Shown here piece after piece: positions 12,971 to 35,302 of a stretch of DNA of 60,607 nt. The notes below the pieces were generated by a model. The model saw only the letters and a program-made list of their open reading frames with translations, was not told where the DNA came from and did not search any database. The first letter of the stretch is position 1. Each line of letters begins with the position of its first letter. Source of the DNA: an uncultured Anaerolineaceae bacterium (GTDB taxonomy: Bacteria > Chloroflexota > Anaerolineae > Anaerolineales > UBA4823); NCBI GenBank assembly GCA_964642565.1, contig CAZXPK010000003.1, positions 1 through 60,607 on the forward strand, written 5' to 3'. The translations under genes were made by a program, and so were the position numbers.

Positions 12971-12998
12971 TTGACTGTGATTATTATCACTATATATG
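12971..12998 (+). promoter_or_regulatory. candidate promoter overlapped by a CRP/FNR-like palindrome
   Basis: TTGACT at 12971-12976 and TATATG at 12993-12998 (16-nt spacer). TGTGA-N6-TCACT lies at 12976-12991 inside the spacer. The site is in a 360-bp AT-rich divergent intergenic region. Confidence 0.3.
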
Positions 12999-13230
12999 CA
13001 TGTTATTATCCACTAGTGAAGTTGACTTTACTATCCGATAATATATTAATCACATTCTTTAAAGTTTGCATTATAGGTTATTCGCCCTATTTGTTTAGTG
13101 TGTTAAAACTATTATTAAATATGTAATCCTGTGAAAATCAAATATAACAACCGGCTATGGTTTTATAATGGAAATTAAACATAGAGACGTTTGATCCAAT
13201 CTTCTAAAAATATGGACCAGAGGTGAATTG

Positions 13231-14433: not shown

Positions 14434-14450
14434 TAGTGGAGAGAATAACT

Positions 14451-15215: not shown

Positions 15216-15227
15216 AAGGAGGAGTCG

Positions 15228-16190: not shown

Positions 16191-16223
16191 GATAGATCTA
16201 TGAAAGGATAAGGCACAAGTCCT

Positions 16224-18230
16224 ATGCCAGAGCGAATTGATTATTGGGGTATCCCTCTTACCTGGAGGCCGGATTTAATCGTCTACTCCTTGATGTTTTT
16301 GGCTGCCATTATTCTACTGATTCGTTTTTATCAACAAGGCAGCTTGTGGTGGCGAGTCGGGCGAACTGAAGTCCGTTGGAATAAAATACACCTTCGCATA
16401 GGTCGGCTTATCACTTATGCCATTGTCCAAACGCGGCTGTTAAGTCAACGATATCCTGGTGTAATGCATATTGGACTGGCATGGGGTTTCTTTGTCTTTT
16501 TTCTTGGAACTGCTCTGGCAACCATCGACTCACACTTTATAAAATTCCTGGAAGGCAATCCTTATCTTATTTATAAATTCATTCTGGATATTTTCACGGT
16601 CTTCTTCACGTTCGGTGCTGTTCTAGCAGCATACCGGCGTTTTATCCAAAAGCCTTCCCGTCTGACTTTACAACCCAGGTTCACAATATCACTGATCGCA
16701 ATAACTGTGATCGTTTTGGCAGGATTAACAGTCGAATCATTGCGACTGGCAATTGAGCGACCCGCATGGGCATTATGGTCACCAGTCGGGTGGTTGCTCG
16801 CCCAAGTATGGATTGCCAGCGGAGCATCTGAGCAAACACTGACAAATTGGCATATAGGGCTCTGGGGATTTCACCTTCTATTAGCAGCAATTACTGTAGC
16901 GACACTTCCTATCGGTACATTATGGCATACCTTGACTGGTCCGCTAAATACCTTTTTCTCCCAATTGGATCGCCCCGTTGGGCAGCTCAAACCAGTCGCT
17001 CTGAATGCTCAAAGTGAGCCAATTTATGTCAAGTCTCTTCAAGACCTGACGTGGAAACAACTCTTGGATGGAGACGCTTGCACCGAATGTGGGCGCTGCC
17101 AAGATGTCTGTCCAGCCCATGCTGCAGGTACACCATTAAGTCCCAAACAATTTATTCTGAGCATCCGCCAGGCATTACATCGAGACGGACCAATTTTGGC
17201 AGCTGGTAATACCAGTATGCAAGATGGGAAGTTAAAACAACTAGTCGGAGATGAAATCTCACAGGATATATTATGGTCATGCACCACATGTGGGGCATGT
17301 GTCCATGAGTGCCCAGTGCTCATCGAACATGTGGATTCTATCGTGGATATGCGTCGCCATCTGGTCATCGAAGGGCAGATGGATGGCATGCTGCAGGATG
17401 CTTTAGCTAATCTTGGAAGGTATGGCAACTCATTTGGGCAATCTGACAGGATGCGTGCCAAATGGACCCAGCCTATTCAACCCAAAATCAAGGATGCGCG
17501 TCGAGAACCAGTCGAGTATCTGTGGTTTGTAGGTGACTATGCCTCCTACAATATAGCACTCACTGACATCACACATAAGACAGCTGACGTTTTCCAACAA
17601 GCTGGTTTGGATTATGGTATTTTGTATGATGGCGAACGTAATGCAGGTAACGATGTACGCAGGGTAGGTGAGGAAGGATTGTTTGAAATGTTGGTCGAGA
17701 AAAATAAGGCAGTGATGGAAAAAAGCACATATAAATCAATCGTCACGACAGACCCACATTCCTATAACACCTTAAAGAACGAGTACCATCTCGATGGAAT
17801 ATCAGTGCTTCACTATACTGAATTACTTGATCAACTCATATCCTCAGGTAAGCTTAAACTCAGCAATAAATCAGGACCTAAAGTCACCTTCCATGATCCA
17901 TGTTTTCTGGGTCGTTACAACGGAATATATGATGCACCACGCCGTATACTAACTTCAATGGGTTTCAACCTGATCGAAATGCCTCGCAACCGTGAACGGT
18001 CATTTTGCTGCGGGGGTGGCGGTGGACGCATCTGGATGGAAGAAGGTACTGTTAAAAAACGCCCCAGTGAGGCTCGAATCGATGAGGCAATTGCTCTAAA
18101 TGATGTACAAATTTTTGTAGTAGCCTGCCCAAAAGACTTAACCATGTTTCGGGATGCAGTAAAAACAACTGGACAGGAAAATAGGATTGTTGTAAAGGAT
18201 ATTATCGAATTGGTTCACGAAGCCCTCTAG
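16224..18230 (+). CDS. membrane-bound Fe-S oxidoreductase (N-terminal multi-TM domain fused to an HdrD-like module)
   Basis: The N-terminal roughly 250 aa holds 5-6 hydrophobic helices. These are followed by CTECGRCQDVCP and CTTCGACVHECP motifs and a CCG domain (DPCFLG...SFCCGGGGG...VACP). The C-terminal half is a clear paralog of the 13231-14433 product. Confidence 0.8.
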   Translation: MPERIDYWGIPLTWRPDLIVYSLMFLAAIILLIRFYQQGSLWWRVGRTEVRWNKIHLRIGRLITYAIVQTRLLSQRYPGVMHIGLAWGFFVFFLGTALATIDSHFIKFLEGNPYLIYKFILDIFTVFFTFGAVLAAYRRFIQKPSRLTLQPRFTISLIAITVIVLAGLTVESLRLAIERPAWALWSPVGWLLAQVWIASGASEQTLTNWHIGLWGFHLLLAAITVATLPIGTLWHTLTGPLNTFFSQLDRPVGQLKPVALNAQSEPIYVKSLQDLTWKQLLDGDACTECGRCQDVCPAHAAGTPLSPKQFILSIRQALHRDGPILAAGNTSMQDGKLKQLVGDEISQDILWSCTTCGACVHECPVLIEHVDSIVDMRRHLVIEGQMDGMLQDALANLGRYGNSFGQSDRMRAKWTQPIQPKIKDARREPVEYLWFVGDYASYNIALTDITHKTADVFQQAGLDYGILYDGERNAGNDVRRVGEEGLFEMLVEKNKAVMEKSTYKSIVTTDPHSYNTLKNEYHLDGISVLHYTELLDQLISSGKLKLSNKSGPKVTFHDPCFLGRYNGIYDAPRRILTSMGFNLIEMPRNRERSFCCGGGGGRIWMEEGTVKKRPSEARIDEAIALNDVQIFVVACPKDLTMFRDAVKTTGQENRIVVKDIIELVHEAL

Positions 18231-18231
18231 T

Positions 18232-20241
18232 ATGGCAAATATTGACACCGGATTATCTCAAAGATTCAAGCGGAAGGTAAATCAGATTGCCAAAAAAGGC
18301 AGTGCTTTGCCTATTACCTATAAGCTAATAGTAAGTTTCTTGCTTATCAGTATACTCACCAACATTTTCTTTACCATCGCAGGGATCACTTTTATCGGCA
18401 ATAGAATCATAACGGAAGCACAAGAAAGAGTGCGGAATGATCTCAATTCTGCACGGGAAATCTATTTTGGAGAGCTCCGCCATATAACGGATGTTGTCCA
18501 GCTCACCGCACGACGTCCAATCATCCAAGATATTTTTGCAACCGGCGTGACTGAAGATATTCAATCTGATCTAGATTATGAAAAAAAATACGAGAATCTA
18601 GATATCCTTACTGTAGTAGATAAGTCTGGCACAGTAGTCTTAAGGACCAATTATCCATATAATACTGGCGATAATCTATATCAACAAGAAATCATCAAAT
18701 CAGCCTTAAACAATAAAGAAACGATTGCTTCGTCTACAATTGTCCCCGTTGAATTTCTGGCGAAAGAATCTCCACGGCTCGCTGAAAGTGCCCACTTTGT
18801 TTTCATCGACACTCCTATGGCACGACCGAGATCTGATACAGAAGAAAGATCCGGTATGTTGTTAGCTGTGGCAGCCCCAGTATTCAATGATGACAACCTC
18901 CTGATCGGAACCTTGTTCGGGGCCGTTCTCTTAAATAGAAATTACAACATAGTCGACACGATCAAGCAAACAGTCTTCAAGGGAATGATGTACAAAGGGA
19001 AGGATATTGGAACAGCCACTATATTCCAGGATGATGTACGGATTTCCACCAATGTTTTAACCGAGCAAGGGACTAGAGCTATTGGCACTCGCGTTGCTGA
19101 GGATGTATATAACCAGGTAGTGGTTAATGGTTTACCTTGGGTTGATCGTGCTTATGTAGTCAACAATTGGTACATCACTGCCTATGAACCAATCCGGAAT
19201 AATTCCAACAATGTGATTGGAATACTTTATGTTGGCATCCTGGAACAAAGATACATTGACCTAAGACAAAACGCGGTCTTGACTTTCTTGCTAATATCCT
19301 TGGGTGGTGTTCTAGCCTCGATTGCCATCTCCTACATGATCTCACGCAACATACTAATCCCGGTTCAAAAACTCGCCTCGGCTTCAAAGGAGCTGGCACG
19401 AGGCAACCTTGAAATTCGGGTGGAAAAAACTTCCAACGATGAGCTTGGTGAATTAGCTGATGGTTTCAATACGATGGCATCCGCCTTAAAGGAACGCGAT
19501 GAGCAGTTAAAAGACTATACGCGCAAGAAATTTATGGAGTCTGAGAGATTGGCTTTAGTAGGTCAATTAGCTGCAAATGTGGCGCATGAATTGAACAATC
19601 CACTTCAAGGCATAGTTACCTATTCTCACCTATTGCTTGAAAATAATTACTGCGATGAGCCAACCACTCAAAACATTCGAAAAATCGTAACCCAAGCTAA
19701 TCGATGTCGAGACATTATCCGTGGGTTATTGGATTTTTCACGACAGCGAAAACCTGACAAGACACTTTGTGACATCAACTCAATTTTGAATGAAAGTATC
19801 TCGTTTGTGGAAAACCAGGCATTATTCCATAACGTCGAGATTGTGATGAACCTCGATGAATCCTTGCCGAAAGCAATCACAGATCCTTCTCAAATCGTCA
19901 GGGTTTTTATCAACCTGATTGTCAATGCAGCTGAAGCCATGGAAGGTAACGGACGGTTGACTATATCATCCAAGGTTGATACGAATACACAATGCATTGA
20001 GATCGAAGTTACAGATACTGGTCCTGGAATTCCAGAAGAAAATTTAGACAAAATATTTGACCCATTCTTTACTACGAAAGAAACTGGGCACGGAGTTGGT
20101 CTTGGGTTAGCGATTAGTTATGGAATTATAAAAGAACATAAAGGTTCGATTTCAGTTGAGAGTAAGATCGGTCTAGGAACGACTTTCATAGTCAGGCTAC
20201 CTCTTGCATCTGTAAAGATCGGTAATGGCAATGAATTATAG
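18232..20241 (+). CDS. sensor histidine kinase (extracytoplasmic sensor domain, HAMP, HisKA, HATPase)
   Basis: Two TM segments flank a sensor domain of about 300 aa. HAMP region (DELGELADGFNTMA), H-box AANVAHELNNPL, and G-boxes DTGPGIP and GHGVGLGLAISY. Confidence 0.85.
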   Translation: MANIDTGLSQRFKRKVNQIAKKGSALPITYKLIVSFLLISILTNIFFTIAGITFIGNRIITEAQERVRNDLNSAREIYFGELRHITDVVQLTARRPIIQDIFATGVTEDIQSDLDYEKKYENLDILTVVDKSGTVVLRTNYPYNTGDNLYQQEIIKSALNNKETIASSTIVPVEFLAKESPRLAESAHFVFIDTPMARPRSDTEERSGMLLAVAAPVFNDDNLLIGTLFGAVLLNRNYNIVDTIKQTVFKGMMYKGKDIGTATIFQDDVRISTNVLTEQGTRAIGTRVAEDVYNQVVVNGLPWVDRAYVVNNWYITAYEPIRNNSNNVIGILYVGILEQRYIDLRQNAVLTFLLISLGGVLASIAISYMISRNILIPVQKLASASKELARGNLEIRVEKTSNDELGELADGFNTMASALKERDEQLKDYTRKKFMESERLALVGQLAANVAHELNNPLQGIVTYSHLLLENNYCDEPTTQNIRKIVTQANRCRDIIRGLLDFSRQRKPDKTLCDINSILNESISFVENQALFHNVEIVMNLDESLPKAITDPSQIVRVFINLIVNAAEAMEGNGRLTISSKVDTNTQCIEIEVTDTGPGIPEENLDKIFDPFFTTKETGHGVGLGLAISYGIIKEHKGSISVESKIGLGTTFIVRLPLASVKIGNGNEL

Positions 20242-21334
20242 AGATAAGATTATCATAATTGATGACGAGGAAGTAGTCTTAGATTCTTGCGCCCAGATCC
20301 TTCAAGGACGCAATTATGACGTTGCCACAGCACCAGATGGTATGCAGGGGCTAAAGCTTGTTGAGGAAATCAAACCCGACTTAGTATATATAGACTTAAA
20401 AATGCCCGGTATACCCGGCCTGGAAGTTCTAGAGCAAATCCACAATCAGGATAATACGATAGTGACCATTGTTATCACCGGCTATGCAACTGTGGACTCA
20501 GCTGTTGAAGCCATGAAAAAAGGGGCTTATGATTTTCTCCCCAAGCCCTTTACCCCTGACGAGTTCCGCTTGATCACAAAGCGTGGCTTAGAACGAAGAA
20601 AATTAGTGGTTGAAGCCATAACCCTCCGCAGAGAAAAGGAAATGCTGCGAGAAAATTTTGCCGCCATCGTTTCCCATGAGCTTAAATCTCCCTTAGGTGC
20701 TATTCAACAGAATTTGTTTGCTCTGTCAGGTGAGCTTGCTGGAAAATTATCCGAAAGCCAAAATGCCAGGCTTGAGCGAATGAAAATCCGTATTGATGAC
20801 TTGATCAAGCTGATCAATTCCTGGCTCAGGGTCTATTCAGTCGATATATCAAAAATTAAGGAGAACTTCTCTGCTATCGCTGTTCCAACATTAATCACAA
20901 AAGCTATAGAAAATGTTGAGCCTCATGCAGTGCGAAAGGATGTTCACTTAATTACTGAGATAAATGAACAACTTCCTCATATTGAAGGCGATGAAACGAG
21001 CCTTGTCGAAGCCTTAGTCAATATTATTGGAAATGCTGTGAAATATTCTTACGCAGGTAGCCAGGTGGCAATCAATAGCACAGAAAAAGACGGGATGATT
21101 GAAATAGCCATTTCGGATACAGGTGTTGGAATTCCAGAGGAAGAACTGCTGAGTGTTTTATCAGATTTTTACCGCGGCAGTAGTGACAAAAGCGAGGAAA
21201 GTAGTCACGGGATTGGTTTAACCATCAGCCGAAAAATCATTGAAGCGCATAATGGAACGATCGTAGTGACAAGCAAGCCATCTATTGGCACAACATTTAC
21301 CATACGAATCCCTGTAATGAAAGATGACGGCTAA
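20225..21334 (+). CDS. hybrid response-regulator / histidine kinase (REC-HisKA-HATPase)
   Basis: N-terminal receiver (IIIIDDE...DLVYIDLKMPG...KP), then H-box VSHELKSPL and the ATPase box DTGVGIP...SHGIGLTISRKI. It overlaps the preceding kinase gene by 17 nt. Confidence 0.85.
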   Translation: MAMNYRDKIIIIDDEEVVLDSCAQILQGRNYDVATAPDGMQGLKLVEEIKPDLVYIDLKMPGIPGLEVLEQIHNQDNTIVTIVITGYATVDSAVEAMKKGAYDFLPKPFTPDEFRLITKRGLERRKLVVEAITLRREKEMLRENFAAIVSHELKSPLGAIQQNLFALSGELAGKLSESQNARLERMKIRIDDLIKLINSWLRVYSVDISKIKENFSAIAVPTLITKAIENVEPHAVRKDVHLITEINEQLPHIEGDETSLVEALVNIIGNAVKYSYAGSQVAINSTEKDGMIEIAISDTGVGIPEEELLSVLSDFYRGSSDKSEESSHGIGLTISRKIIEAHNGTIVVTSKPSIGTTFTIRIPVMKDDG

Positions 21335-21400
21335 ATACGGGAGTACTTGGCAATTACTTTGGACATGCTTGATGAAAAAAGTGTGAAAAGGAGAGATACA

Positions 21401-21823
21401 ATGACTGAACAAAAGAGACTATTGATTATCGATGATGATCCTGATTTTGTGGAAGGCATCAAATCGATTCTTGATGGGGCGGGATATAATGTAGATGTTA
21501 CCTATAACCCGAAAACTGGCCTCCAAGCATTGCAAGACAAAATATACGATCTATTACTCCTAGATATTATGATGGGTCGAGGTGCTGAGGGCATCATGAT
21601 TGCTCGTAAACTACGAAAAGACCCCAAGCTTAGGGAGATGCCAGTTTTGATCATCACCGGTATCCGGGAACAGATGGCTTTTCTCTTCCCTGGTGAGCCG
21701 GTGCATCCTCGCTTCGTTGCTGTAGATGAGTTGGTTGAAAAACCGGTGGAACCAAAAATGCTACTGGAGAAAGTAAGAACTCTTATCGAAACAGCTGAAG
21801 CTAGAAAAACCAAAGCGGGATAG
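21401..21823 (+). CDS. single-domain response regulator (REC only)
   Basis: LLIIDDDPD...DLLLLDIMM...EKP receiver signature with no output domain. ATG at 21401 is preceded by an AAAAGGAGAG RBS; the ORF-track start is 21347. Confidence 0.8.
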   Translation: MTEQKRLLIIDDDPDFVEGIKSILDGAGYNVDVTYNPKTGLQALQDKIYDLLLLDIMMGRGAEGIMIARKLRKDPKLREMPVLIITGIREQMAFLFPGEPVHPRFVAVDELVEKPVEPKMLLEKVRTLIETAEARKTKAG

Positions 21824-21834
21824 AAAGGAATTTT

Positions 21835-22398
21835 ATGGCAACCAAACCATCATTCAGTACTGAAGTTGCCAACCTCCTGCTTACCGCAGAAGGAAATCCA
21901 CTGGAGACCTGTATCCAATGTGGGACCTGCTCAGGTTCCTGCCCGGTTGCTAAATATATGGATCAAACACCGCGGCGTATCATTGCCATGATCAATGCAG
22001 GCCTAAAAGAAGATGTGCTCAAAACCAACACCTTCTGGTATTGTGCATCATGTTACCAATGCACTGTGAGGTGCCCAAGTGGAATCGACATCGCTGAAGC
22101 GATGTATGCCTTGAAACGATACACTATGTGGACTAATCAGCATAAGGAAGGATTGATTGGACCGACCTTCTCCGAGACTTTTGTCAAAACGATAGTGAGA
22201 ACTGGACGTTCTTATGAACCCCTCTTGGCACCTACATACATTTTCAGTTATGGCATACGTGAATTTTTCAATGAGGCTTTAAACGCGACGAACCTGATGT
22301 TAAAAGGGAGAATTCCCATTCTACCTCCACGAATTAAACGGCTCGAGAATTTCAGGCGGATGATTGCCCATATCATCCCTATTGGAGGGATAGAATGA
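21835..22398 (+). CDS. hdrC: heterodisulfide reductase subunit C
   Basis: 187 aa with two ferredoxin motifs, CIQCGTCSGSCP and CASCYQCTVRCP, and HdrC-type spacing. Confidence 0.85.
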   Translation: MATKPSFSTEVANLLLTAEGNPLETCIQCGTCSGSCPVAKYMDQTPRRIIAMINAGLKEDVLKTNTFWYCASCYQCTVRCPSGIDIAEAMYALKRYTMWTNQHKEGLIGPTFSETFVKTIVRTGRSYEPLLAPTYIFSYGIREFFNEALNATNLMLKGRIPILPPRIKRLENFRRMIAHIIPIGGIE

Positions 22399-23297
22399 GA
22401 GAATATGTTTATTTTCCCGGTTGTTCTCTTGAGAAAATAGCCCTGAGCTATCATCTCTCTGCACTTGAGACTACTCAAAAGTTTGGGATTAAGCTTAAAG
22501 AGTTGGATGATTGGAACTGCTGTGGAGCCACAGCTTATTTTCATGTCGATGAGTTATTAGCCTATACCCTGTCTGCTCGTAACCTGGCCATGGCGGAAAA
22601 AGTGGGATCTGAAGTAGTCGCCCCATGTAGTGCATGCTATAAAAATATGTATTTCACGAATGTACATCTGAAGGACGACCCAGATCTGGCTGATCACATT
22701 AATGAGGCTTTGCAAGAGGATAATTTATCCTACTCAGGAAAAGTAGTGGTAAAACATCTCATCGAAGTATTTTCAAACGATATTGGACCTGAAGAAATCA
22801 AAAGCAAAGTCATCTTTCCACTGAGTGAATTGCGGGTTGCACCATATTACGGGTGTCAGATATTACGCCCGAAAAAGAACCATGAAGATGTTGAGCAACC
22901 CCAATTCTTTGAGGATTTAATGGCAGCTATTGGAGCTACACCGGTAGATTTTCCACTGAAGTTAACCTGCTGCGGAGGTTCATTATTAATCTCCAGCCGA
23001 CCAGCAGCCTATTATATGATCCACAATCTACTATATAGTGCACAACGCGCTCATGCAGATGTAATCGCGACAGCATGTCCTTTGTGTCAAGTTAACCTGG
23101 AATGTTACCAGCAGCAAGTTAATCAAGAATTCGGCACAAATTTCGCAATCCCTGTGGTGTATTTCACCCAACTGATCGGTTTATCATTGGGAATTTCCCC
23201 GAAAAAATTAGGGTTTGGGAAGGAATTCCTCAGCCCAAAGAAAGCAATTGATGCGATCAAAAATATCCATAATAATGAGGAGGTAACAACACAATGA
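22395..23297 (+). CDS. hdrB: heterodisulfide reductase subunit B
   Basis: 300 aa with two CCG domains (DWNCCGA...APCSACY and LTCCGGS...ACPLCQ). ATGA overlap with hdrC. Confidence 0.85.
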   Translation: MREYVYFPGCSLEKIALSYHLSALETTQKFGIKLKELDDWNCCGATAYFHVDELLAYTLSARNLAMAEKVGSEVVAPCSACYKNMYFTNVHLKDDPDLADHINEALQEDNLSYSGKVVVKHLIEVFSNDIGPEEIKSKVIFPLSELRVAPYYGCQILRPKKNHEDVEQPQFFEDLMAAIGATPVDFPLKLTCCGGSLLISSRPAAYYMIHNLLYSAQRAHADVIATACPLCQVNLECYQQQVNQEFGTNFAIPVVYFTQLIGLSLGISPKKLGFGKEFLSPKKAIDAIKNIHNNEEVTTQ

Positions 23298-23367
23298 GTC
23301 GATATATACGATTAGTGACTCTCATCTGCATACTACCGACCGTCCTGTGTATAAAGGAGCAAATGTT

Positions 23368-25374
23368 ATGAGTGAAAAAATTGGGGTATATATCTGCCAT
23401 TGTGGTAGTAATATTGCCGGTACAGTGGATGTCGAGGAAGTAGCCAGGTGGGCAGCAGAAGAGCTCCAACCGCGTGGTGTGGTGGTTGCACGCGATTACA
23501 AATTTATGTGTTCCAGCCTGGGGCAGGAGCTGATTGAAAAAGATATCAAGGAAGAAGGTTTGACCCGCGTCGTTGTTGCCTCCTGTTCACCGCATCTGCA
23601 CGAACCAACCTTCCGCAATGCATGTGCAAGGGCTGGTCTCAACCCTTATCTGTTTGAGATGGCTAATATACGCGAGCAAGACTCATGGGTAACGACTGAC
23701 AAGTTGGAAGCCACTAAAAAAGCGAAAGCCCTTATTGCGGCAGCTGTCGGACGAGTGGTACATCAGCAGCCGCTCAACTCCCTATTTGTCCCCATAGATC
23801 CGACGGTACTGGTAGTCGGTGGAGGCATCACCGGTATCCAGGCAGCTTTGGAAATCGCCAATAGTGGGCAAAAGGTCTACTTGGTGGAACGCGAGCCATC
23901 CATCGGCGGGCACATGGCACAGTTCGATAAGACCTTCCCCACCCTGGACTGCTCGGCATGCATCCTGACACCCAAGATGTATGATGTAGGTAATCACAAG
24001 AACATAACATTATTGACCTGGAGCGAAGTCGAGAAGGTTGAGGGATACATCGGTAACTTTACCGTGACCATCCGGAAACGCGCCCGCTATATCGACCAGA
24101 GTTTATGTACTGGTTGCGGCGTGTGCTGGGAAAAATGCCCGAAGAAAGTGGTTGACAATGTTTTCGAGGCTGGTCTGGGTAAGCGTAAAGCGGTCTACAC
24201 ACCTTTCCCACAAGCTGTGCCCAAGTTCCCGGTCATCGATTACGAAAATTGCACATTTTTCTTGAAAGGCACCTGCAAAGCCTGCCAAAAATTCTGTCCA
24301 ACCGGCGCGATCAACTTTGATCAGCAAGATGAAATCATCACTGTCAAAGTTGGTAATATTATCCTTGCTACAGGCTTCGATTTGTTCGATCCGCGTCGTA
24401 TTCCTCAATATGGATATGGACGCCTACCTAATGTTTACACTAGCCTGGAGTTCGAACGGTTGAGCAATGCAGCTGGGCCAACAGGCGGAAAAATTGTCTT
24501 GCGCGACGGCGTCACTGTTCCAAAGAGTGTAGCAATTGCTCATTGTGTGGGCAGCCGAGATAAAAACTACAATAGCTACTGTTCAGCGATTTGCTGTATG
24601 CAGAGCTTAAAATTCGCCCACCTTGTACACGAGAAGACTGGGGCAGAAGTCTATAACTGCTATATTGATATTCGTACCCCTGCCAAAGGATATGATGAGT
24701 TTTACCAGCGCTTATTGGAAGAAGGAACGCACTTCATCCGTGGGAAAATCGCTGAGATCACCGATGCAGCCCGGACACCAGAAGAGGAAGGAAAGCTGGT
24801 TGTCCAAGTGGAAGACACACTGATCGGTAAGCAGCGCCGCGTTCCTGTGGATATGGTCATCCTTTCTTGCGGCCTGGAACCACGCCACGACCATAAAGAT
24901 TTGGCGCGCTTGTTTGGAATATCGTGCAGTGCAGATGGTTGGCTAATCGAGCGCCACCCCAAGCTGGATCCAATTGCCACCATGACCGACGGGGTATTTA
25001 TAGCCGGTGTATGTCAGGGACCCAAAGATATTCCCGCCAGTGTAGCACAGGGTGCTGCAGCTGCGGCACGTGTTTTGTCCATCATTGGCCAAGGCGAGAT
25101 CGAAATCGAAGCCGCAACTGCTATTGTAGATGAAACGACCTGTGTTGGATGCACGCAATGTGTTTCCTCGTGCCCTTATCAGGCGATTGAGTTCATTTCT
25201 GAAAAGGGTAAAGCGCATGTGATTGAAGCCCTTTGCAAGGGATGTGGCACCTGCGTAGGCACCTGCCTGCCCAAATCCATCAGCCTCAAACACTTCACCG
25301 ACGAGCAAATTGTGTCTGAGATGGTCGGTGCAATGCGCGTAATGACATCTTTCGAAACAGTGGAGGTGGTGTAA
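23368..25374 (+). CDS. hdrA: heterodisulfide reductase subunit A (FAD, multiple [4Fe-4S])
   Basis: FAD fold VLVVGGGITGIQAAL. Fe-S motifs CTGCGVCWEKCP, CKACQKFCP, CVGCTQCVSSCP and CKGCGTCVGTC. ATG at 23368 follows an AAAGGAG RBS; the ORF-track GTG is at 23347. Confidence 0.9.
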   Translation: MSEKIGVYICHCGSNIAGTVDVEEVARWAAEELQPRGVVVARDYKFMCSSLGQELIEKDIKEEGLTRVVVASCSPHLHEPTFRNACARAGLNPYLFEMANIREQDSWVTTDKLEATKKAKALIAAAVGRVVHQQPLNSLFVPIDPTVLVVGGGITGIQAALEIANSGQKVYLVEREPSIGGHMAQFDKTFPTLDCSACILTPKMYDVGNHKNITLLTWSEVEKVEGYIGNFTVTIRKRARYIDQSLCTGCGVCWEKCPKKVVDNVFEAGLGKRKAVYTPFPQAVPKFPVIDYENCTFFLKGTCKACQKFCPTGAINFDQQDEIITVKVGNIILATGFDLFDPRRIPQYGYGRLPNVYTSLEFERLSNAAGPTGGKIVLRDGVTVPKSVAIAHCVGSRDKNYNSYCSAICCMQSLKFAHLVHEKTGAEVYNCYIDIRTPAKGYDEFYQRLLEEGTHFIRGKIAEITDAARTPEEEGKLVVQVEDTLIGKQRRVPVDMVILSCGLEPRHDHKDLARLFGISCSADGWLIERHPKLDPIATMTDGVFIAGVCQGPKDIPASVAQGAAAAARVLSIIGQGEIEIEAATAIVDETTCVGCTQCVSSCPYQAIEFISEKGKAHVIEALCKGCGTCVGTCLPKSISLKHFTDEQIVSEMVGAMRVMTSFETVEVV

Positions 25375-25781
25375 TGTACGAACCAAAGATCATAGGATTT
25401 CTATGCAACTGGTGTTCCTACCGCGGGGCTGATTCCGCAGGCATGGCACGCTTGAAATACCCCCCAAATGCCAAGATCATCCGAGTGCCGTGCAGTGGGC
25501 GGATTTCTCCCGAGCTGGTCTTGCGCACGTTTCGCGAAGGCGCAGACGGCGTCATGGTTCTGGGATGCCACATCGGCGATTGCCACTACAGCACAGGTAA
25601 CCATCGCACGGCTAAACGTATGCCAATTTTGAAAAAATTACTTGGATATAATGGCATTGACCCAGAGCGGCTGGTAATCAACTGGGTATCAGCAGCAGAG
25701 GGTGAGAAATTCTCGATCGTCGTAAAGGATTTCACCGAAAAAATCAGAGCCATGCCGCCTTTTGTGGAGACAATGAAATGA
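25374..25781 (+). CDS. mvhD: MvhD-like hydrogenase iron-sulfur (delta) subunit
   Basis: 135 aa. The pattern FLCNWCSY...RVPCSGR...VLGCHIGDCHY is typical of MvhD/FlxD. TAATG overlap with hdrA. Confidence 0.85.
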   Translation: MYEPKIIGFLCNWCSYRGADSAGMARLKYPPNAKIIRVPCSGRISPELVLRTFREGADGVMVLGCHIGDCHYSTGNHRTAKRMPILKKLLGYNGIDPERLVINWVSAAEGEKFSIVVKDFTEKIRAMPPFVETMK

Positions 25782-26602
25782 CCGATCGACTTACCTCCTT
25801 ACAAGAAGCAATCAACCAGGTTTTTCCTCAAGTCGAGGGTGTGCTTGGCATAAAGCGAGGCCCAGGAGGCATTGCTGCTCCTTATCTGTTCTCACCCGAA
25901 CATCCAGAAGAGGTAGACCTGTTAGTAATTTGGCCCAAGGAGCCAGTACCCGATACCCTCAGGATCATCCAGCGCGCTCACACCGACTCCAAGCTCGCCA
26001 TTGTTTGCCGGGGGTGTGAGGAACGCGGCATCGTTGAGATGTTCAAACAATCTCAGCTCAAATGGGATAACATCACCCTGATCGGCTTGGAATGCACTCA
26101 GGAAGAAGCTGAATTCTGCCGCTGCGCCAAGCCATACACCATCCACGCGACGACCACTGTAGGTGAGCCGATCGCAGGTGTGCCTGACCCATTAACTGAT
26201 AAGATCGCCGGAATGAGTCTGGAGGAAAGACGAGCCTTCTGGATGGAAGAATTCCAACACTGCATTAAATGCTACGGCTGTCGGAACATCTGCCCACAGT
26301 GCTTCTGCAATATCTGCACGCTGGAAGACGAAAAGTGGGTTGAAACTGGTCGACTTCCCATGCCCAACCCATCCATGTATCACATGATCAGAGCCATGCA
26401 TATGACGGCTAAATGCGTTGCCTGTCGCGAATGCGAAGAGACATGCCCTGCTGGTATCCCCATGGCAGTGCAATTCCGCTTGATCGCCCGTGATGTGCAG
26501 GAAATGTTCAACTACGAAACTGGCGCTAAACTGGATCAGAAACCGCCACAACTATTGGTACTCGAAGAAGGTGAGTATCAACGTACCGGGTTGCCACATT
26601 AA
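25778..26602 (+). CDS. Fe-S cluster protein (2x[4Fe-4S] with CPxCFC extension), putative electron-transfer subunit
   Basis: 274 aa. Motifs CIKCYGCRNICPQCFCNIC and CVACRECEETCP. The N-terminal roughly 150 aa has no motif I recognise. ATGA overlap with mvhD and a 12-nt gap to fdhA. Confidence 0.6.
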   Translation: MTDRLTSLQEAINQVFPQVEGVLGIKRGPGGIAAPYLFSPEHPEEVDLLVIWPKEPVPDTLRIIQRAHTDSKLAIVCRGCEERGIVEMFKQSQLKWDNITLIGLECTQEEAEFCRCAKPYTIHATTTVGEPIAGVPDPLTDKIAGMSLEERRAFWMEEFQHCIKCYGCRNICPQCFCNICTLEDEKWVETGRLPMPNPSMYHMIRAMHMTAKCVACRECEETCPAGIPMAVQFRLIARDVQEMFNYETGAKLDQKPPQLLVLEEGEYQRTGLPH

Positions 26603-26614
26603 GGAGCGAATGCT

Positions 26615-28663
26615 ATGATCGAATACAAAAATGTTCTGACTACCTGTCCGTACTGTGGAACGGGCTGCAACTTGCACCTTCAAGTCCTTGATGGCGCATT
26701 AGTTGGTGTGCTGCCAGCAAAAGGACACCCCATCAGCCAGGGCAGCCTGTGTATCAAGGGTTGGAATGCGCATGCCTTTGTGAATCACAAAGATCGCCTG
26801 CGCACTCCGTTGATCCGCAAGAATGGTGAATTGGTTGAAGCGACCTGGGATGAAGCCTTGAGCTTGGTGGCAGAAAAACTTGGCGCCATTAAAACCGAGA
26901 GTGGTCCGGATAGCATCGGCATTTTGTCCTCTGCAAAATGCACGAACGAAGAAAATTATTTGCTCCAAAAGTTCGCCCGCGCAGTGATCGGAACGAATAA
27001 CATTGATCACTGCGCCCGTCTCTGACACGCTCCCACTGTGGCCGGTCTGGCTGCATCATTTGGTAGTGGAGCAATGACGAATTCGATCCCAGAATTCGAA
27101 GAAAACACCAACTGCTTCTTAATTATCGGCTCTAATACTTCCGAAGGTCACCCGTTGATCGCAACCCGGATCCTGAAAGGCCAGAAGCGCGGCGCCAAGG
27201 TCATTGTCATTGATCCGCGTAAAAATCAGATTGGCTACTGGGCGGATATCTTTTATACCTTCCGCCCCGGCAGCGATGTTGCCCTCTTTAATGGGTTTAT
27301 GAATGTGATTATCAGCGAAGAATTAGCGGATGAGGCTTTCATCGCAGAGCGTACTGAGGACTATGAAGCCCTTAAGACCCTGGTTGCAGAATACACCCCG
27401 GAGAAAGTGGCTGAGATCACCAACGTACCGGCAGATGGTATCCGCGATATCGCCCGCACTTATGCCAAGGGTAAACCAGCTGCGATCATTTATGCCATGG
27501 GCATCACCCAGCACACAACCGGTGTTGACAATGTTAAATCCACTGCCAACCTGGCCATGCTGTGCGGCAACATGGGCATCGCTGGTGGCGGTGTCAACCC
27601 ACTCCGTGGACAAAATAACGTTCAAGGTGCCTGCGATATGGGCGCCTTACCCAACGTCTATTCCGGATATCAGGCTGTCACCATCCCGGATGTTCAGAAG
27701 AAATTCCAGGAGGCATGGGGATCAGCTGGTCCATTGACTGTTGGATTGACGGTTACCGAGATGGTCCATGCAGCTTCCGAAGGCAAAGTGCGCGCCCTCT
27801 TCGTGATGGCTGAGAATCCGATGATCTCAGACCCGGATCTCAACCACGTCCGCCACTGCCTGGAACAAACGGAATTCCTGGTGGTCCAGGATATCTTCAT
27901 GACCGAGACAGCTGAGATGGCTCACGTAGTCCTCCCGGGTACGACGTTTGCTGAAAAGGATGGCACCTTCTCGAACACCGAACGCCGTGTTCAACGGGTA
28001 CGCAAGGCTATCGAACCAATCGGTGACTCCAAACCAGATTGGGTGATCATCTGCGAGCTGGCGAAGAAAATGAGTGCTCAGGGCTTTGATTACAATTCTC
28101 CTGTAGATATCATGGTTGAAATCAATCGCCTGACCCCTTCATACGGCGGCATCACCTACGAACGCCTGGAAGAACTTGGTTCGCTACAATGGCCTTGCCC
28201 CACAACCGAACATCCCGGCACGTCTTTCCTCCACAAGGGTAAATTTGCCCGCGGTCAAGGAAAATTTTTCGCCCTTCCGTTCAAAGAACCGGCCGAAATG
28301 CCGGACGAAGAATATCCATTCACCCTCACCACCGGGCGAATTATGTTCCATTTCCATACCGGCTCAATGACCCGTCGTTCAGCCAAACTGAACAGCGAAG
28401 TCCCCGAAGCCTATGTCGAGATCAATGTACTCGACGCTCAAAAGATAGGCTTAAATGGTCACAAATACGTACGCGTGACAAGTCGGCGCGGTGAAATTGA
28501 ACTCGGAGTGCGCATTACCGATGATATCAAGCGCGGGGTTATCTTTATTCCATTCCACTTCGCTGAAGCTGCCGCCAATAAGCTTACCAACGCTGCCATC
28601 GACCCGGTCGCTAAGATCCCTGAGTATAAAGTCTGCGCGGTAAAGGTTGAAGTCGCAGCTTAG
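26615..28663 (+). CDS. fdhA: formate dehydrogenase alpha subunit, selenocysteine-containing (Mo/W-bisPGD)
   Basis: The track ORFs 26615-27025 and 27038-28663 are in the same frame and are separated only by TGA at 27023-27025. Read-through gives [27 protein letters not shown], the conserved Fdh active-site context. The N-terminal CPYCGTGC [4Fe-4S] motif is present. Confidence 0.9.
27026..27072 (+). promoter_or_regulatory. SECIS-like mRNA hairpin downstream of the UGA
   Basis: Apical stem 27038-27043 / 27049-27054 (GUGGCC/GGCUGC, including two G-U pairs) with loop GGUCU at 27044-27048. Lower stem 27029-27037 / 27065-27072. The apical stem starts 12 nt after the UGA. Confidence 0.6.
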
Positions 28664-28714
28664 GTGGAATTTCCGAACCTTCAGGTCGGTCATTAGGAGA
28701 CAAGGAGAAAGTAC

Positions 28715-29206
28715 ATGGATGTTCGAAAGATTTTAGAATATGCACTGCAGCGCGAATATGAAGGCAAACACTTCTTTGAAGAAAATGCCGCACGTATGGG
28801 TCATCCTGCGGCGGCTGGTGCTTTTAAAGAATTAGCTGCTGAGGAAGGGAAACACATCGAGTTCATCCAGGGGCAACTCGCCGCCCTGGATAAAAATCAA
28901 CTTTCCAGCGATGCTCTGACGAAAGAACTCGATGGAGCAGGTTTCTTCTCAGCCCGCGCTCACTCGGAAATGCTTGATCAGACGGTGTTGGAGGCCATGG
29001 TACCAGACCTGCCTGTGCTACGGACTGCGTACCTCATTGAAAGGGATTTCGCTGACTTCTACGAGAATTCTTCAAAGCAAGCCAATGGTGAAACAAAAAT
29101 TTTGCTGGAGAAGCTTGCCAAATGGGAACGTAAGCATGAGGCCTTGTTCAAGAGCTTACACGACAAAGCCTATGAAGTCTACAACCAAATGCCCTGGGGA
29201 GGTTAA
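28715..29206 (+). CDS. rubrerythrin/ferritin-like diiron four-helix-bundle protein
   Basis: 163 aa with a duplicated E...ExxH pattern (EYEGK...AEEGKHIEF and ERDFADFYE...WERKHEAL). No rubredoxin domain. Confidence 0.5.
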   Translation: MDVRKILEYALQREYEGKHFFEENAARMGHPAAAGAFKELAAEEGKHIEFIQGQLAALDKNQLSSDALTKELDGAGFFSARAHSEMLDQTVLEAMVPDLPVLRTAYLIERDFADFYENSSKQANGETKILLEKLAKWERKHEALFKSLHDKAYEVYNQMPWGG

Positions 29207-29215
29207 GAGTTACGA

Positions 29216-30001
29216 ATGAATTTCCGCACCCCTTTACCTAACTCCGTGCGCTACCACGCTGGAAAATGGGAAACATTGGGAGCTGGGGTAATTGTTGAAA
29301 CACCAGTTACATTAACGGTCAATGGACACGTCTGGTTGACCTTTATGTGCACGCCAACGGATTTGGAAGCGCTGGCGGTAGGATTTCTATACGATGAAGG
29401 TGTGATTAAGAACAAAGAAGAGATCGAGTTAATGAAAGTATGCCCGTCTGGCGATAATGTAGATATCTGGCTGAAAAATGCCGTGGAACAACCACAACAG
29501 TGGCGGAAAACATCGGGATGCACGGGCGGTGCGACTGCGGTATCTCTGGATCAGATACACCCGGAACTCAAAGATGGCCTTTTGCTAACCCCCAAAATGG
29601 TGCAAAGTTTAATCAAAAATCTTTCAGAAGAGCAGGTTTTGTATCGAGAGGTCGGTGGCGTGCACACCTCTATCTTGAGCGATGGTGAACGGGTGGTTGT
29701 TTCTGCGGAAGATATCGGCAGGCATAATTCACTAGATAAAATTGCCGGTCATTGTGTCCTGGAAAACATTGAACTAGCGCGGAAAATATTGGTCACGACC
29801 GGCCGTATTAGTTCAGATATGATCCAGAAAGCCGCCCGAATTGGAGCTGCAGTTGTCATCTCACGAACCTCTGCGAGTTCGCTCTCCGTCACCCTGGCAG
29901 ATAAATGGGGAATCACCTTAATTGGTTATGCACGGCATGATCAGTTTCTTATCTATACGCACCCAGAACGGATAAAGCAAATAACTATAGTTTTAGCATA
30001 G
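29216..30001 (+). CDS. fdhD: formate dehydrogenase accessory sulfurtransferase FdhD
   Basis: 261 aa. GGVHTS and DIGRHNSLDKIAG motifs and the SSGCTGG-like cysteine loop (TSGCTGG). Confidence 0.9.
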   Translation: MNFRTPLPNSVRYHAGKWETLGAGVIVETPVTLTVNGHVWLTFMCTPTDLEALAVGFLYDEGVIKNKEEIELMKVCPSGDNVDIWLKNAVEQPQQWRKTSGCTGGATAVSLDQIHPELKDGLLLTPKMVQSLIKNLSEEQVLYREVGGVHTSILSDGERVVVSAEDIGRHNSLDKIAGHCVLENIELARKILVTTGRISSDMIQKAARIGAAVVISRTSASSLSVTLADKWGITLIGYARHDQFLIYTHPERIKQITIVLA

Positions 30002-30100
30002 CAATCTCGTCTGAGGAGGAGTGACCCTAAGAGATACTATAAAAAGTAGCAACCCACATCGTCCAACACAAAAACAACCCTATATCTAAGGAGACTTTCT

Positions 30101-30955
30101 ATGAGTGACCAAATTTCTTTTGATGCCCTACTACCACCCGGAATGGCTGCGAAAGCAGAAGACCTGGGAGTCAAAAAGGCCAACCTCAAAGCCCTCAATA
30201 TGTTCTTTCTGGCTATTCTGGCTGGTGCGTTCATCGGCATTGGTGCCATCTTTGCAACGACCGTTGCTGCGGCTAGTAGCACTTTACCATACGGTGTCGC
30301 CCGTTTGCTTATCGGCCTTGCCTTTACCGTTGGCCTGATTCTTGTTGTAGTTGGCGGCGCAGAATTATTTACCGGCAATACCCTGATCACCATGGCATTT
30401 GCGAGTAAGAAGGTTACCATCTTGCAATTGTTGCGGAATTGGGTGATTGTTTACGTTGGCAACTTTGTCGGTGGTGTCCTGACTGCCTACATCGTATTTC
30501 TGGGAAAACAATATTCATTTGGTGGTGGCTCGATAGGTTTGGCTGCGTTGAATATTGGCGAGTCAAAAACTGCCCTGGGATTCATCCAAGCTATCGCATT
30601 GGGTATCATGTGTAATGCCCTGGTTTGCATGGCTGTCTGGATGTGCTATAGCGCTCGGAGCGTAGGAGATAAAATCTTAGCTATCATTCCTCCCATTGCT
30701 ACCTTTGTTGCTGCGGGGTTCGAACACAGCATCGCCAATATGTATTTCATCCCAGTTTCGCTATTTGTTAAGTATATGGGAGACGCGTCTTTCTTTACAA
30801 CTATCAGCAAGACGGCAGCAGATTTTCCCCATCTCACTTGGGGGAACTTCTTTATTGCCAACCTGTTACCCGTAACCATAGGTAACATCATTGGTGGTGG
30901 AATAATGGTAGGATTGATGTATTGGTTTGTGTACTCACGCAAACCGAAAGCCTAG
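30101..30955 (+). CDS. focA: formate/nitrite transporter family protein (FocA/FdhC)
   Basis: 284-aa membrane protein. GAELFTGN and GFEHSIANM signature motifs of the FNT family. AAGGAG RBS. Confidence 0.9.
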   Translation: MSDQISFDALLPPGMAAKAEDLGVKKANLKALNMFFLAILAGAFIGIGAIFATTVAAASSTLPYGVARLLIGLAFTVGLILVVVGGAELFTGNTLITMAFASKKVTILQLLRNWVIVYVGNFVGGVLTAYIVFLGKQYSFGGGSIGLAALNIGESKTALGFIQAIALGIMCNALVCMAVWMCYSARSVGDKILAIIPPIATFVAAGFEHSIANMYFIPVSLFVKYMGDASFFTTISKTAADFPHLTWGNFFIANLLPVTIGNIIGGGIMVGLMYWFVYSRKPKA

Positions 30956-30969
30956 AACTGCCAATATGC

Positions 30970-31006
30970 CATGTCTGCCAGATACTAATCCCATCTGGCA
31001 GACATG
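30970..31006 (+). terminator. strong hairpin after focA (possible terminator or processing site)
   Basis: Perfect 14-bp inverted repeat CATGTCTGCCAGAT / ATCTGGCAGACATG with a 9-nt loop, 15 nt after the focA stop. There is no clear U-tract. Confidence 0.45.
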
Positions 31007-31015
31007 CATGGTAGG

Positions 31016-31044
31016 TTGTTAAATATTTGAAACATATATAAAAT
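31016..31044 (+). promoter_or_regulatory. candidate promoter (TTGTTA-N17-TAAAAT)
   Basis: TTGTTA at 31016-31021, a 17-nt spacer, TAAAAT at 31039-31044, directly after the focA hairpin. Confidence 0.3.
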
Positions 31045-31114
31045 CGTAACGAGGATACTGCCGGTAATTTGCTTTATCCGCTCATTACTTTGAAGAATTT
31101 CAACAGAATGGCTC

Positions 31115-31678
31115 TTGGGTACTCCCTGGGGCCTTTATTTAGTATGGTTAGGTTTTATTGGTGAATATATAGGTAGTTGGCTGGGGAATCCTATATTAGG
31201 AGATAATGAAGTAGGTTGGCTGAGCACTCAAGAATTTCAGATAACAAATATTTCATCCGATGTAACAATCGAATGCCTATCGGTCGGTTGGTTTAGCTTA
31301 ATGGGAGCACCGATTGGGTTCGATCTGTCAATATCAATGGATGGGATGTTAAAACATCAGGTCCCGATTGGAAGCGTAAATCATGATGAACTTAATGATT
31401 TACCAGATCCAACCCCAAGACAACCGAGCACTGCTCATGCCGTGTCTCTATGGAATACTTTGCAAATGAGCCATTCGTTACGGCCTCGATTACCTGAAGA
31501 TATATCAGCAACATCGATTAAAGCTCAAATAGCGATTGAATTATTTAATTATTTAAAACCACCTGTTACCACTGCTACACAGGAAGCAAGAAGAACAATT
31601 CTGGATTTACTGATAGAATACAATTCAGAAAACCCACCAAAAAAAGAATGTTTAATAGTTAAGGAGAAACACCTATGA
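31115..31678 (+). CDS. hypothetical protein
   Basis: 187-aa ORF with a TTG start and no convincing RBS. Its stop forms an ATGA overlap with the next gene. No motif recognised. Confidence 0.35.
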   Translation: MGTPWGLYLVWLGFIGEYIGSWLGNPILGDNEVGWLSTQEFQITNISSDVTIECLSVGWFSLMGAPIGFDLSISMDGMLKHQVPIGSVNHDELNDLPDPTPRQPSTAHAVSLWNTLQMSHSLRPRLPEDISATSIKAQIAIELFNYLKPPVTTATQEARRTILDLLIEYNSENPPKKECLIVKEKHL

Positions 31679-32145
31679 TTTCACCAGAAATATTAAGGCG
31701 TTATCCATTCTTTGGGAGCTTAACTGATACGCAGATCAAAGCATTGGCCATGATTGCGGAAGAACAAGCATGTGGAAAAGGCACCGTTCTATGCGAAGAA
31801 GGTAAACCTGCCGATGCATTCTATCTTCTTGTGGATGGTGGCGTTAGCTTGTATTACGTGTCTGAGGATGAATTCCACCCTAAAACACGGAAGGAATTTC
31901 TCGTAGGTGAGGTGAATCCAGGTGAGGTTTTTGCAATCAGCGCATTTATTGAGCCATATATATATACAGCAACCGTCCGTGTTGATAAAAACAGCCGGGT
32001 AGTAAAATTTGATAGGATTGCATTAAATGAGTTGATCAATAAGGATCCAAAGCTAAATTGCATATTGATGTATAAAATCGCAAAAGCGATGATGGAACGG
32101 CTCACTTTTGTACGCGTACAGTTAGCCGCTGCCTGGGCGAAATAA
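31675..32145 (+). CDS. stand-alone cyclic-nucleotide-binding (CAP effector) domain protein
   Basis: 156 aa. FGSLTDTQIKALA...GTVLCEEGKPADAFYLLVDGGV...GEVFAISA fits the cNMP-binding beta-barrel. No HTH or other output domain. AAGGAG RBS. Confidence 0.7.
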   Translation: MISPEILRRYPFFGSLTDTQIKALAMIAEEQACGKGTVLCEEGKPADAFYLLVDGGVSLYYVSEDEFHPKTRKEFLVGEVNPGEVFAISAFIEPYIYTATVRVDKNSRVVKFDRIALNELINKDPKLNCILMYKIAKAMMERLTFVRVQLAAAWAK

Positions 32146-35276: not shown

Positions 35277-35302
35277 GCGCGAAGAGACAATCCGGAGGAT
35301 TT

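Follow-up and report, generated by a model that had tools for sequence, protein, structure and literature searches.

The FdhAB-MvhD-HdrABC complexes of methanogens, composed of a formate dehydrogenase (Fdh), the adaptor MvhD and a heterodisulfide reductase (Hdr), are experimentally established electron-bifurcating enzymes (PMC12350162, PMC13518236). In bacteria, an hdrA-mvhD-fdhB-fdhA arrangement was described in 2009 at loci V and VI of Desulfobacterium autotrophicum HRM2 (PMC2702500). A survey of bifurcating enzymes by Poudel et al. gave the same arrangement for D. autotrophicum and Desulfobacula toluolica, stating that its role was unknown (PMC6085437), and in 2017 a cluster from deep-sea Anaerolineae single-cell genomes was named HdrBCA-MvhD-FdhBA (PMC5736913). 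Here we analyzed a stretch of 60,607 nucleotides (from here on, the window) of contig CAZXPK010000003.1, assembly GCA_964642565.1, from an uncultured Anaerolineaceae bacterium (Anaerolineae, Chloroflexota). It carries hdrC, hdrB, hdrA, mvhD, a gene for a 274-aa Fe-S protein that we call fdhB', and fdhA, head to tail on the + strand at 21835-28663. This cluster type is already reported in bacteria and widespread, and the window is a further example of it, not a new arrangement. On balance, the six genes probably encode a cytoplasmic FdhA(Sec)-FdhB'-MvhD-HdrABC complex (Sec, selenocysteine), the bacterial counterpart of the methanogen Fdh-Hdr bifurcating enzyme. A formate-linked bifurcating complex had been proposed in a first-pass annotation of this DNA, and it is now supported by the homology of its subunits, by synteny that is conserved among relatives, by gene fusions and by a module swap found in nature.

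To define the subunits, we searched solved structures (PDB) with five of them: HdrA, HdrB, MvhD, FdhB' and FdhA. In all five cases the best match was the corresponding subunit of the methanogen Fdh-Hdr, Elp-Hdr or Mvh-Hdr complexes. HdrA residues 8-664 align with residues 10-654 of 8rvu_a (702 bits; 693 bits for 5odc_A), and the protein also gives 815 bits with the HdrA2 model NF040770 over profile positions 1-642. It is full length, with a thioredoxin-reductase-like flavin adenine dinucleotide (FAD) domain and N-terminal, inserted and C-terminal ferredoxin domains; both FAD and Fer4 domains were found by Pfam. HdrB matches 7bkb_B over its full length (2.9e-55) and keeps both C...CCG...CxxC motifs intact in the translation, while its score with the NCBIfam equivalog for the coenzyme B-coenzyme M (CoB-CoM) enzyme, 218 bits, does not reach the cut-off of 345. 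HdrC was assigned by family models alone (Fer4 and HdrC models), its score with TIGR03290 being 80 bits, under the cut-off of 160 bits. The two [4Fe-4S] motifs of HdrC and the two CCG motifs of HdrB are those of a methanogen-type complex, and so is the presence of an MvhD adaptor (5odc_D, 2.7e-51; 7bkb_F, 1.1e-42) encoded together with its input module. Finally, FdhA has the Sec- or Cys-containing catalytic subunit type with Mo/W-bis(pyranopterin guanine dinucleotide) (bisPGD) of these complexes, with 905.6 bits for TIGR01591 (cut-off 666), 821 bits for the Methanococcus FdhA chain 9t1s_L and 723 bits for 7bkb_D. Regarding the HdrA of relatives, selenocysteine was not found at the codon aligned with Cys202. 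The hdrA of one related locus (L040, 6092-9463) has an insertion of ~470 aa resembling an NAD(P)H-binding domain of GltD type, in an HdrL-like manner, and one in-frame stop near codon 198, possibly selenocysteine; similarly split hdrA matches were seen in L031, L035, L047 and L052.

The protein encoded between mvhD and fdhA had been described as an unusual Fe-S subunit. It turned out to be a truncated FdhB, not a new protein. The 274-aa sequence gave no Pfam family match below E = 0.001, PF04422 and PF04432 did not match even at E = 10, and NCBIfam gave nothing useful. Using a profile built from the window protein and twelve homologues against the PDB, we retrieved the FdhB chains 9t1s_M (5.7e-42) and 7bkb_E (9.7e-37) and the ElpB chain 8rvu_E (6.9e-31), and the top Foldseek matches of its AlphaFold model were again 7bkb_E and 8rvu_E. 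We then aligned it with two full-length FdhB references (P0203 and P0261), which have PF04422 at 5-78, PF04432 at 92-243 and a ferredoxin part at 288-355. In FdhB', the N-terminal GxxGGxxT motif and the GSLH loop are gone, as are ~54 residues between Cys106 and Cys114 and ~57 more after them, deletions that take out most of the FrhB_FdhB_C domain. In the FrhB family, this domain and the N-terminal helix form the FAD/F420 site (PMC3591093), and the methanogen FdhB/ElpB holds FAD and four [4Fe-4S] clusters (PMC12350162). The four cysteines that ligate the FrhB-type [4Fe-4S] cluster (ligands according to PMC3591093) are kept in FdhB' as C80, C106, C114 and C116, and 15 cysteines are invariant, including the eleven of the C-terminal clusters. 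FdhB' is thus not an FrhB-family FdhB with a FAD and F420 site (PF04422 plus PF04432) and is predicted to be a shortened FdhB that has Fe-S clusters only. Since the FAD/F420 site is lost, it would act as a pure electron wire. Intermediate FdhB forms of ~310-345 aa that retain part of PF04432 were also observed.

The selenocysteine of FdhA, likewise anticipated by the first-pass annotation, was borne out by comparison with relatives. At the aligned position, 63 of 70 related fdhA loci have TGA and 7 have TGC or TGT, and a hairpin loop with GGTCT lies 18-30 nt past the TGA in 61 of the 63 TGA genes and in 0/7 of the Cys genes. The folding energy of the region of the selenocysteine insertion sequence (SECIS) is not significant by itself (z = -0.38), and a scan of the whole window at Rfam gathering thresholds gave no match, hence no curated SECIS or riboswitch model. 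The SECIS assignment therefore relies on the comparative TGA/GGTCT pattern and not on folding energy. Judged by this pattern, the fdhA TGA is a genuine selenocysteine codon.

To see how far the arrangement extends, we scanned one genome per species and found that at least 523 genomes encode an FdhB' relative. Synteny was analyzed in the best 80 species-level loci, counting those with enough flanking sequence. The mvhD gene lies immediately 5' of fdhB' in 71/74 testable loci, fdhA lies 3' of it in 59/63, hdrA lies 5' in 53/61, and 38/55 have a CCG protein nearby, encoded by hdrB or by a fused HdrD-like gene. These loci come mostly from Anaerolineae and other Chloroflexota, and also from Gemmatimonadota, Thermodesulfobacteriota, Dehalococcoidia, Aerophobetes and one Thermoplasmatota archaeon. 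The synteny survey that had been called for thus found the hdrA-mvhD-fdhA arrangement in several phyla, so that it is not unique to one genome. Three loci (L023, L024 and L026) have tandem duplicated hdrA-mvhD sets 5' of fdhB', with a fused HdrD-like gene instead of hdrCB before the hdrA-mvhD copy that adjoins fdhB'. An exhaustive search with the FdhB' profile gave 1249 clusters (50% identity) at E <= 0.001 and 229 at E <= 1e-30. Among their representatives, at least five, all from other metagenomes, are full MvhD(FlpD)-FdhB' fusions (P0139, P0174, P0176, P0179 and P0244), and P0127 has a partial FlpD joined to FdhB'. Such fusions argue, independently of the synteny, for MvhD and FdhB' acting in direct contact.

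Comparison with the closest relatives indicates that the window locus is a recombinant mosaic. From hdrA rightwards it is colinear with the closest Fdh-type relatives, L001 and L002, with identities of 89% for HdrA, 88% for MvhD, 91% for FdhB' and 94% for FdhA. To the left, 10.5 kb of the window (12911-23382), with the HdrD-like gene, etfBA, the membrane HdrED-like gene, a kinase, two receivers, hdrC and hdrB, stand in place of a 1.85-kb segment (5750-7605 in L001/L002) that carries a different hdrCB pair, 36-47% identical to that of the window. HdrC is 94% identical to that of a sister genome, L085, and 36-43% identical to those of L001-type relatives. L085 and the window have in common the left flank (transketolase), the cassette with electron-transfer flavoprotein (ETF) and CCG genes, hdrC (94%) and hdrB (87%), and the match extends into hdrA as far as window position 25072. 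The right flank is also the same: GNAT, HMA, carbon monoxide dehydrogenase (CODH) and acetyl-CoA synthase (ACS). Between both flanks, mvhD-mvhG-mvhA-hycI (L085 12679-16995), encoding an Mvh-type [NiFe]-hydrogenase in mvhG-mvhA, replaces the mvhD-fdhB'-fdhA-rbr-fdhD-focA of the window (25073-32140). The MvhD of the window is 88-92% identical to those of Fdh-type relatives and only 53% identical to that of L085, which argues that MvhD travels with the input module. In L082, L083/L084 and L086, the cassette occurs with hdrCBA-mvhD-mvhGA elsewhere in the genome. As read from these loci, one Hdr core takes either formate dehydrogenase or hydrogenase as its input module, an exchange that has been shown structurally in Methanococcus (PMC13518236).

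How does this locus compare with the described systems? With the methanogen FdhAB-MvhD-HdrABC complexes (PDB 7BKB and 9T1S; Elp-Hdr 8RVU) it has six subunit types in common, among them a Sec/Cys Mo/W FdhA, the MvhD adaptor, a full-length HdrA and a two-CCG HdrB, as well as an input module that is exchangeable with the Mvh hydrogenase. It differs from them in its FdhB', which lacks PF04432, the GxxGGxxT motif and the GSLH loop, in belonging to a bacterium without sign of CoM or CoB, and in the lack of polyferredoxin or Fmd/Fwd partner genes, in whose place Wood-Ljungdahl genes flank the module. In the bacterial clusters of Anaerolineae DscP3/Dsc4, D. toluolica Tol2 and D. autotrophicum HRM2, gene content and order are as in the window, FdhA is a Sec protein, FdhB is a small Fe-S protein, and a bifurcating role has been proposed (PMC5736913, PMC2702500, PMC6085437); the hdr(C,B),A-mvhD-small Fe-S fdhB-fdhA(Sec) order on one strand places the window in this group. 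Unlike these clusters, the window has a different hdrCB paralogue, the ETF/HdrD-like cassette and a two-component system, its module is contiguous with a CODH/ACS-metVF cluster, and hdrC and hdrB, which are fused in DscP3, are separate genes. The HdrCBA-MvhD-MetVF of Moorella thermoacetica shares with the window the hdrCBA-mvhD order, the association with the Wood-Ljungdahl pathway and a second acceptor that is not named. However, fdhB'-fdhA and not metV-metF directly follow mvhD in the window, where metVF is fused and distant, and the predicted donor is formate and not NADH. The sHdr-LbpA systems also have CCG-type HdrB/HdrC, and lipoate ligase and GcvH-like genes lie beside hdrC in some distant relatives of the module. 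Yet sHdrA is short and lacks ferredoxin domains (6tjr_A matches only residues 332-579 of the window HdrA), and the window has no lbpA, lplA or sulfur-transferase genes, which sets it apart from that group. As for FlxABCD-HdrABC, no flxA-type NAD(P)H oxidoreductase or flxBC was found near the cluster in the Pfam annotation of window open reading frames (ORFs) of at least 135 aa, an annotation that took in every gene from 13228 to 33251. The flavin-less FdhB', the MvhD-FdhB' fusions, the Fdh/Mvh allelic exchange beside Wood-Ljungdahl genes and the lipoate-gene neighbourhood of relatives are not stated in the literature that we searched.

The six genes are packed very closely (Table 1). All six ORFs are where the first-pass annotation had placed them, and direct reading of the sequence agreed with its junctions: an ATGA overlap at 22395 (hdrC/hdrB), TAATG at 25372-25376 (hdrA/mvhD), ATGA at 25778 (mvhD/fdhB') and a 12-nt spacer ahead of fdhA, GGAGCGAATGCT, which contains GGAG. 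The hdrA ORF opens with GTG at 23347, and an AAGGAG at 23354 precedes the ATG at 23368, which is the likelier start; counted from there, the gap to the end of hdrB is 70 nt. The claim of one tightly coupled six-gene unit stood in part: the overlaps are real, but the unit exceeds six genes in both directions. The co-directional run 13228-30001 comprises sixteen genes with every gap <=70 nt, taking in the ETF/HdrD-like cassette and the two-component system upstream (the stand-alone receiver gene stops 11 nt ahead of hdrC) and the rubrerythrin-like gene and fdhD downstream. The focA gene begins 99 nt beyond fdhD, and the run reaches 30955 if it is counted.

Table 1. Features of the window around the hdr-mvhD-fdh module
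Feature	Position	Strand	Description	Evidence
Soluble HdrD-like protein	13228-14433	+	ETF/CCG cassette	Pfam, NCBIfam
etfB	14436-15215	+	ETF/CCG cassette	Pfam, NCBIfam
etfA	15228-16190	+	ETF/CCG cassette	Pfam, NCBIfam
Membrane HdrED-like Fe-S/CCG protein	16224-18230	+	ETF/CCG cassette	Pfam, NCBIfam
Cache-HAMP histidine kinase	18232-20241	+	Two-component gene	Pfam
Receiver-kinase hybrid	20225-21334	+	Two-component gene	Pfam
Stand-alone receiver	about 21402-21823	+	Two-component gene	Pfam, sequence read
hdrC	21835-22398	+	187 aa, two-[4Fe-4S] subunit	Pfam Fer4_8/Fer4_17
hdrB	22395-23297	+	300 aa, two CCG motifs for non-cubane [4Fe-4S] clusters	Pfam CCG
hdrA	23368-25374	+	668 aa from ATG 23368, flavoprotein, predicted bifurcating	PDB and NCBIfam matches
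mvhD	25374-25781	+	135 aa, [2Fe-2S] adaptor	Pfam FlpD 5.9e-52
fdhB'	25778-26602	+	274 aa, predicted shortened FdhB	Profile against PDB, Foldseek
fdhA	26615-28663	+	682 codons, Mo/W-bisPGD catalytic subunit, Sec codon 137	TIGR01591
Sec codon TGA	27023-27025	+	In frame in fdhA	
SECIS-like hairpin	27038-27054, GGUCU loop 27044-27048	+		RNA fold
Rubrerythrin-like diiron four-helix protein	28715-29206	+	163 aa	Pfam Rubrerythrin 6.1e-9, two ExxH motifs
fdhD	29216-30001	+	Sulfurtransferase, Fdh maturation	FdhD-NarQ 1.6e-70; TIGR00129 197 bits, above cut-off
focA-type formate channel	30101-30955	+		Pfam Form_Nir_trans 1.7e-79
Wood-Ljungdahl cluster	33255-48743	+	CODH, ACS, acsD, acsC, RACo, acsE, malic-enzyme-like, TrxB-like, metV-metF, two cooC	Pfam
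Fused metV-metF	45309-46784	+	491 aa	

Regarding the neighbourhood, the order of the two-component genes is identical in L081-L086. In close relatives as in the window, and in several distant relatives too, the rubrerythrin-like gene immediately follows fdhA, and its product could serve in oxidative protection or as a redox partner. The focA gene is kept downstream in 14 loci. In the window it is followed by a 187-aa ORF without Pfam match (31115-31678), which lies ahead of a gene for a cyclic nucleotide monophosphate (cNMP)-binding regulator. Downstream of focA, the carbonyl-branch Wood-Ljungdahl cluster is complete, and its position on the right side of the module is conserved in L001-L003, L005 and L085. 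Within it, at 42917-46784, a malic-enzyme-like gene and a thioredoxin-reductase-like flavoprotein gene precede the fused metV-metF. No hydrogenase genes were found in the window by Pfam annotation, in line with what the first-pass annotation had said of the vicinity, and the window has no tRNA genes and no methanogenesis genes. A CofD-family gene (59222-60556, - strand, 444 aa) was considered as a hint of F420 synthesis and set aside; it adjoins gap-pgk and has a YvcK-type look, and its product is probably a YvcK-type member and not an F420 biosynthesis enzyme. The same annotation had seen no obvious heterodisulfide substrate system, and here we come to a different view, given that two HdrD-like CCG proteins and EtfAB are encoded in the same run and a fused MetVF beyond it.

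From the gene content, homology, synteny, fusions and module swap, all of them observed directly, we infer a physical complex that bifurcates electrons, and the solved complexes offer by homology a path for them. Formate would be oxidised at the Mo/W-selenocysteine site of FdhA, and its electrons would reach the FAD of HdrA by way of the Fe-S clusters of FdhB' and then the [2Fe-2S] cluster of MvhD. At this flavin they would be split, one electron going uphill to ferredoxin and the second one downhill via HdrC to HdrB, whose two non-cubane clusters would reduce a (di)sulfide-type or equivalent acceptor. The potentials of formate, ferredoxin and methylene-tetrahydrofolate (methylene-THF) are about -430 mV, about -500 mV and about -200 mV, respectively. 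Formate can drive ferredoxin reduction only together with a second acceptor whose potential lies well above about -360 mV, a requirement that methylene-THF and disulfides both satisfy. The reaction is probably reversible and could also run from CO2 to formate. One-to-one subunit homology, the near-touching start and stop codons, the presence of fdhD and focA beside fdhA, and the SECIS signature support the complex. The module adjoins fdhD, the formate channel and Wood-Ljungdahl genes, and its most likely role in this clade is to link formate/CO2 with the acetyl-CoA pathway's ferredoxin pool.

Several observations weigh against a bifurcating Fdh-Hdr complex of this kind. The bacterial Fdh-MvhD-HdrABC members are known from genes alone. 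Linkage of hdrB and hdrC is less constant than that of the other genes, and two loci keep fdhB' and have no fdhA beside it. These two loci read hdrCBA-mvhD-fdhB' (L014, 9876-13350; L010, 10001-11400). FdhB' lacks the flavin domain, unlike characterised FdhB, and its AlphaFold model is confident for residues 1-150 only, with low confidence in the C-terminal half. Promoter and terminator consensus scans gave the same counts as shuffled sequences and were uninformative, so the case for co-transcription comes from gene spacing. Besides, synthesis of CoM-S-S-CoB is not known from bacteria, hence the substrate of HdrB must differ from that of methanogens. The close relatives also have hdrCB of the other type, and as a result the low- and high-potential partners may differ between genomes. 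That an independent Fdh merely sits beside an independent Hdr by chance is, on the other hand, extremely improbable, as it is contradicted by the synteny counts, the MvhD-FdhB' fusions, the overlapping codons and the covariation of MvhD with the input module. One could also argue for a simpler enzyme, a formate:acceptor oxidoreductase or a CO2 reductase, whose HdrA is a mere relay and which reduces no ferredoxin. Among the relatives, 17/55 have no hdrBC nearby, and the HdrL-type HdrA of some relatives, with its inserted GltD-like NAD(P)H domain, points to functional diversity. We nevertheless consider such an enzyme quite improbable, for the window HdrA is full length, with both ferredoxin domains and 702 bits to a structurally characterised bifurcating HdrA, and the entire subunit set of a bifurcating complex is present.

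If the six genes do encode a bifurcating complex, there are three leads for the acceptor of HdrB, none of them decisive: MetVF, a dithiol of the upstream cassette and a lipoyl protein. In a Moorella-like variant, the high-potential branch would end at the fused MetV-MetF of the adjoining Wood-Ljungdahl cluster, with two formate giving reduced ferredoxin plus methylene-THF reduction, or, in reverse, methyl-THF and reduced ferredoxin giving formate in syntrophic acetate oxidation. The metVF gene is on the same strand in the flanking Wood-Ljungdahl cluster, and three locus variants, namely the L001 type, the window and L085, have the module next to CODH/ACS. The L014 genes run hdrC-hdrB-hdrA-mvhD-fdhB'-focA-metVF, and in L009 metVF comes after focA, within 3.6 kb. 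The potentials of formate, methylene-THF and ferredoxin are compatible by textbook values, and the Moorella HdrABC-MvhD-MetVF is an accepted complex (summarised in PMC5736913). However, metVF and fdhA are not neighbours in the window, where 16.6 kb separate them, Wood-Ljungdahl genes are missing within 10 kb in most distant relatives, the hdrCB of L014 type is the other paralogue type than that of the window, and the hand-over of electrons from HdrB to MetVF is not established even in Moorella. We regard this ending as rather unlikely. An ending in a thiol/disulfide loop seems to us doubtful as well. Here HdrB would reduce a dithiol carrier on which two co-inherited CCG proteins, the soluble HdrD-like and the membrane HdrED-like one, would act as well, and these proteins would tie the complex to EtfAB, the quinone pool or both. 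Such a carrier may be either a small molecule or a protein, e.g. a lipoyl-GcvH-like one as in sHdr-LbpA systems. The cassette (HdrD-like, etfBA, membrane CCG, kinase and two receivers), present in the window, L081, L082, L083/L084, L085 and L086, always precedes hdrCB of the window type, with Fdh or Mvh input alike. Distant relatives have DsrMK-like genes (NarI or cytochrome c plus HdrD-like) 5' of hdrC, and also a lipoate-protein ligase in seven loci and a GcvH-like lipoyl carrier in three; sHdr systems need lipoate-binding proteins (PMC6067878). Yet neither a GcvH-like nor an LplA-like gene was found in the window by tblastn, thiol biosynthesis genes were not seen either, L001-type relatives carry the Fdh-Hdr module without the cassette, and the latter may belong to an unrelated ETF-linked pathway and have only its regulators in common with the module. 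The distant relatives with lipoate ligase, GcvH-like, DsrMK-like or NrfD-like genes just 5' of hdrCBA-mvhD-fdhB'-fdhA include L032 (50-6012) and L040 (27-3910), and also L023, L024, L030, L031, L034, L038 and L049.

We tentatively propose, as a possible reading, that in this Anaerolineae clade one HdrABC core placed before Wood-Ljungdahl genes takes either the flavin-free FdhA-FdhB'-MvhD or MvhAG-MvhD as alleles, with HdrB reducing, in place of a heterodisulfide of methanogen type, a bacterial partner, be it MetVF/methylene-THF or a protein-bound dithiol (e.g. lipoyl-GcvH-like) shared with the HdrD-like and ETF proteins. Bacterial HdrABC-MvhD modules are common in anaerobes and their substrates are mostly unassigned. 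The locus variants described here, with Fdh or Mvh input, two hdrCB types, presence or absence of the ETF/HdrD-like cassette, and metVF or lipoate-gene adjacency, together form a compact set for comparison, with which the acceptor could be named and formate-driven bifurcation be tested outside methanogens. A reversible coupling of formate, ferredoxin and a second acceptor next to CODH/ACS would also bear on the energy conservation of the abundant, uncultured Anaerolineae in sediments and digesters. If the proposal of alternative input alleles on one HdrABC core is true, the long-sought acceptor of bacterial HdrABC would be identified, and bacterial acetogenesis or syntrophic acetate oxidation would have in this module a bifurcating front end driven by formate or H2.

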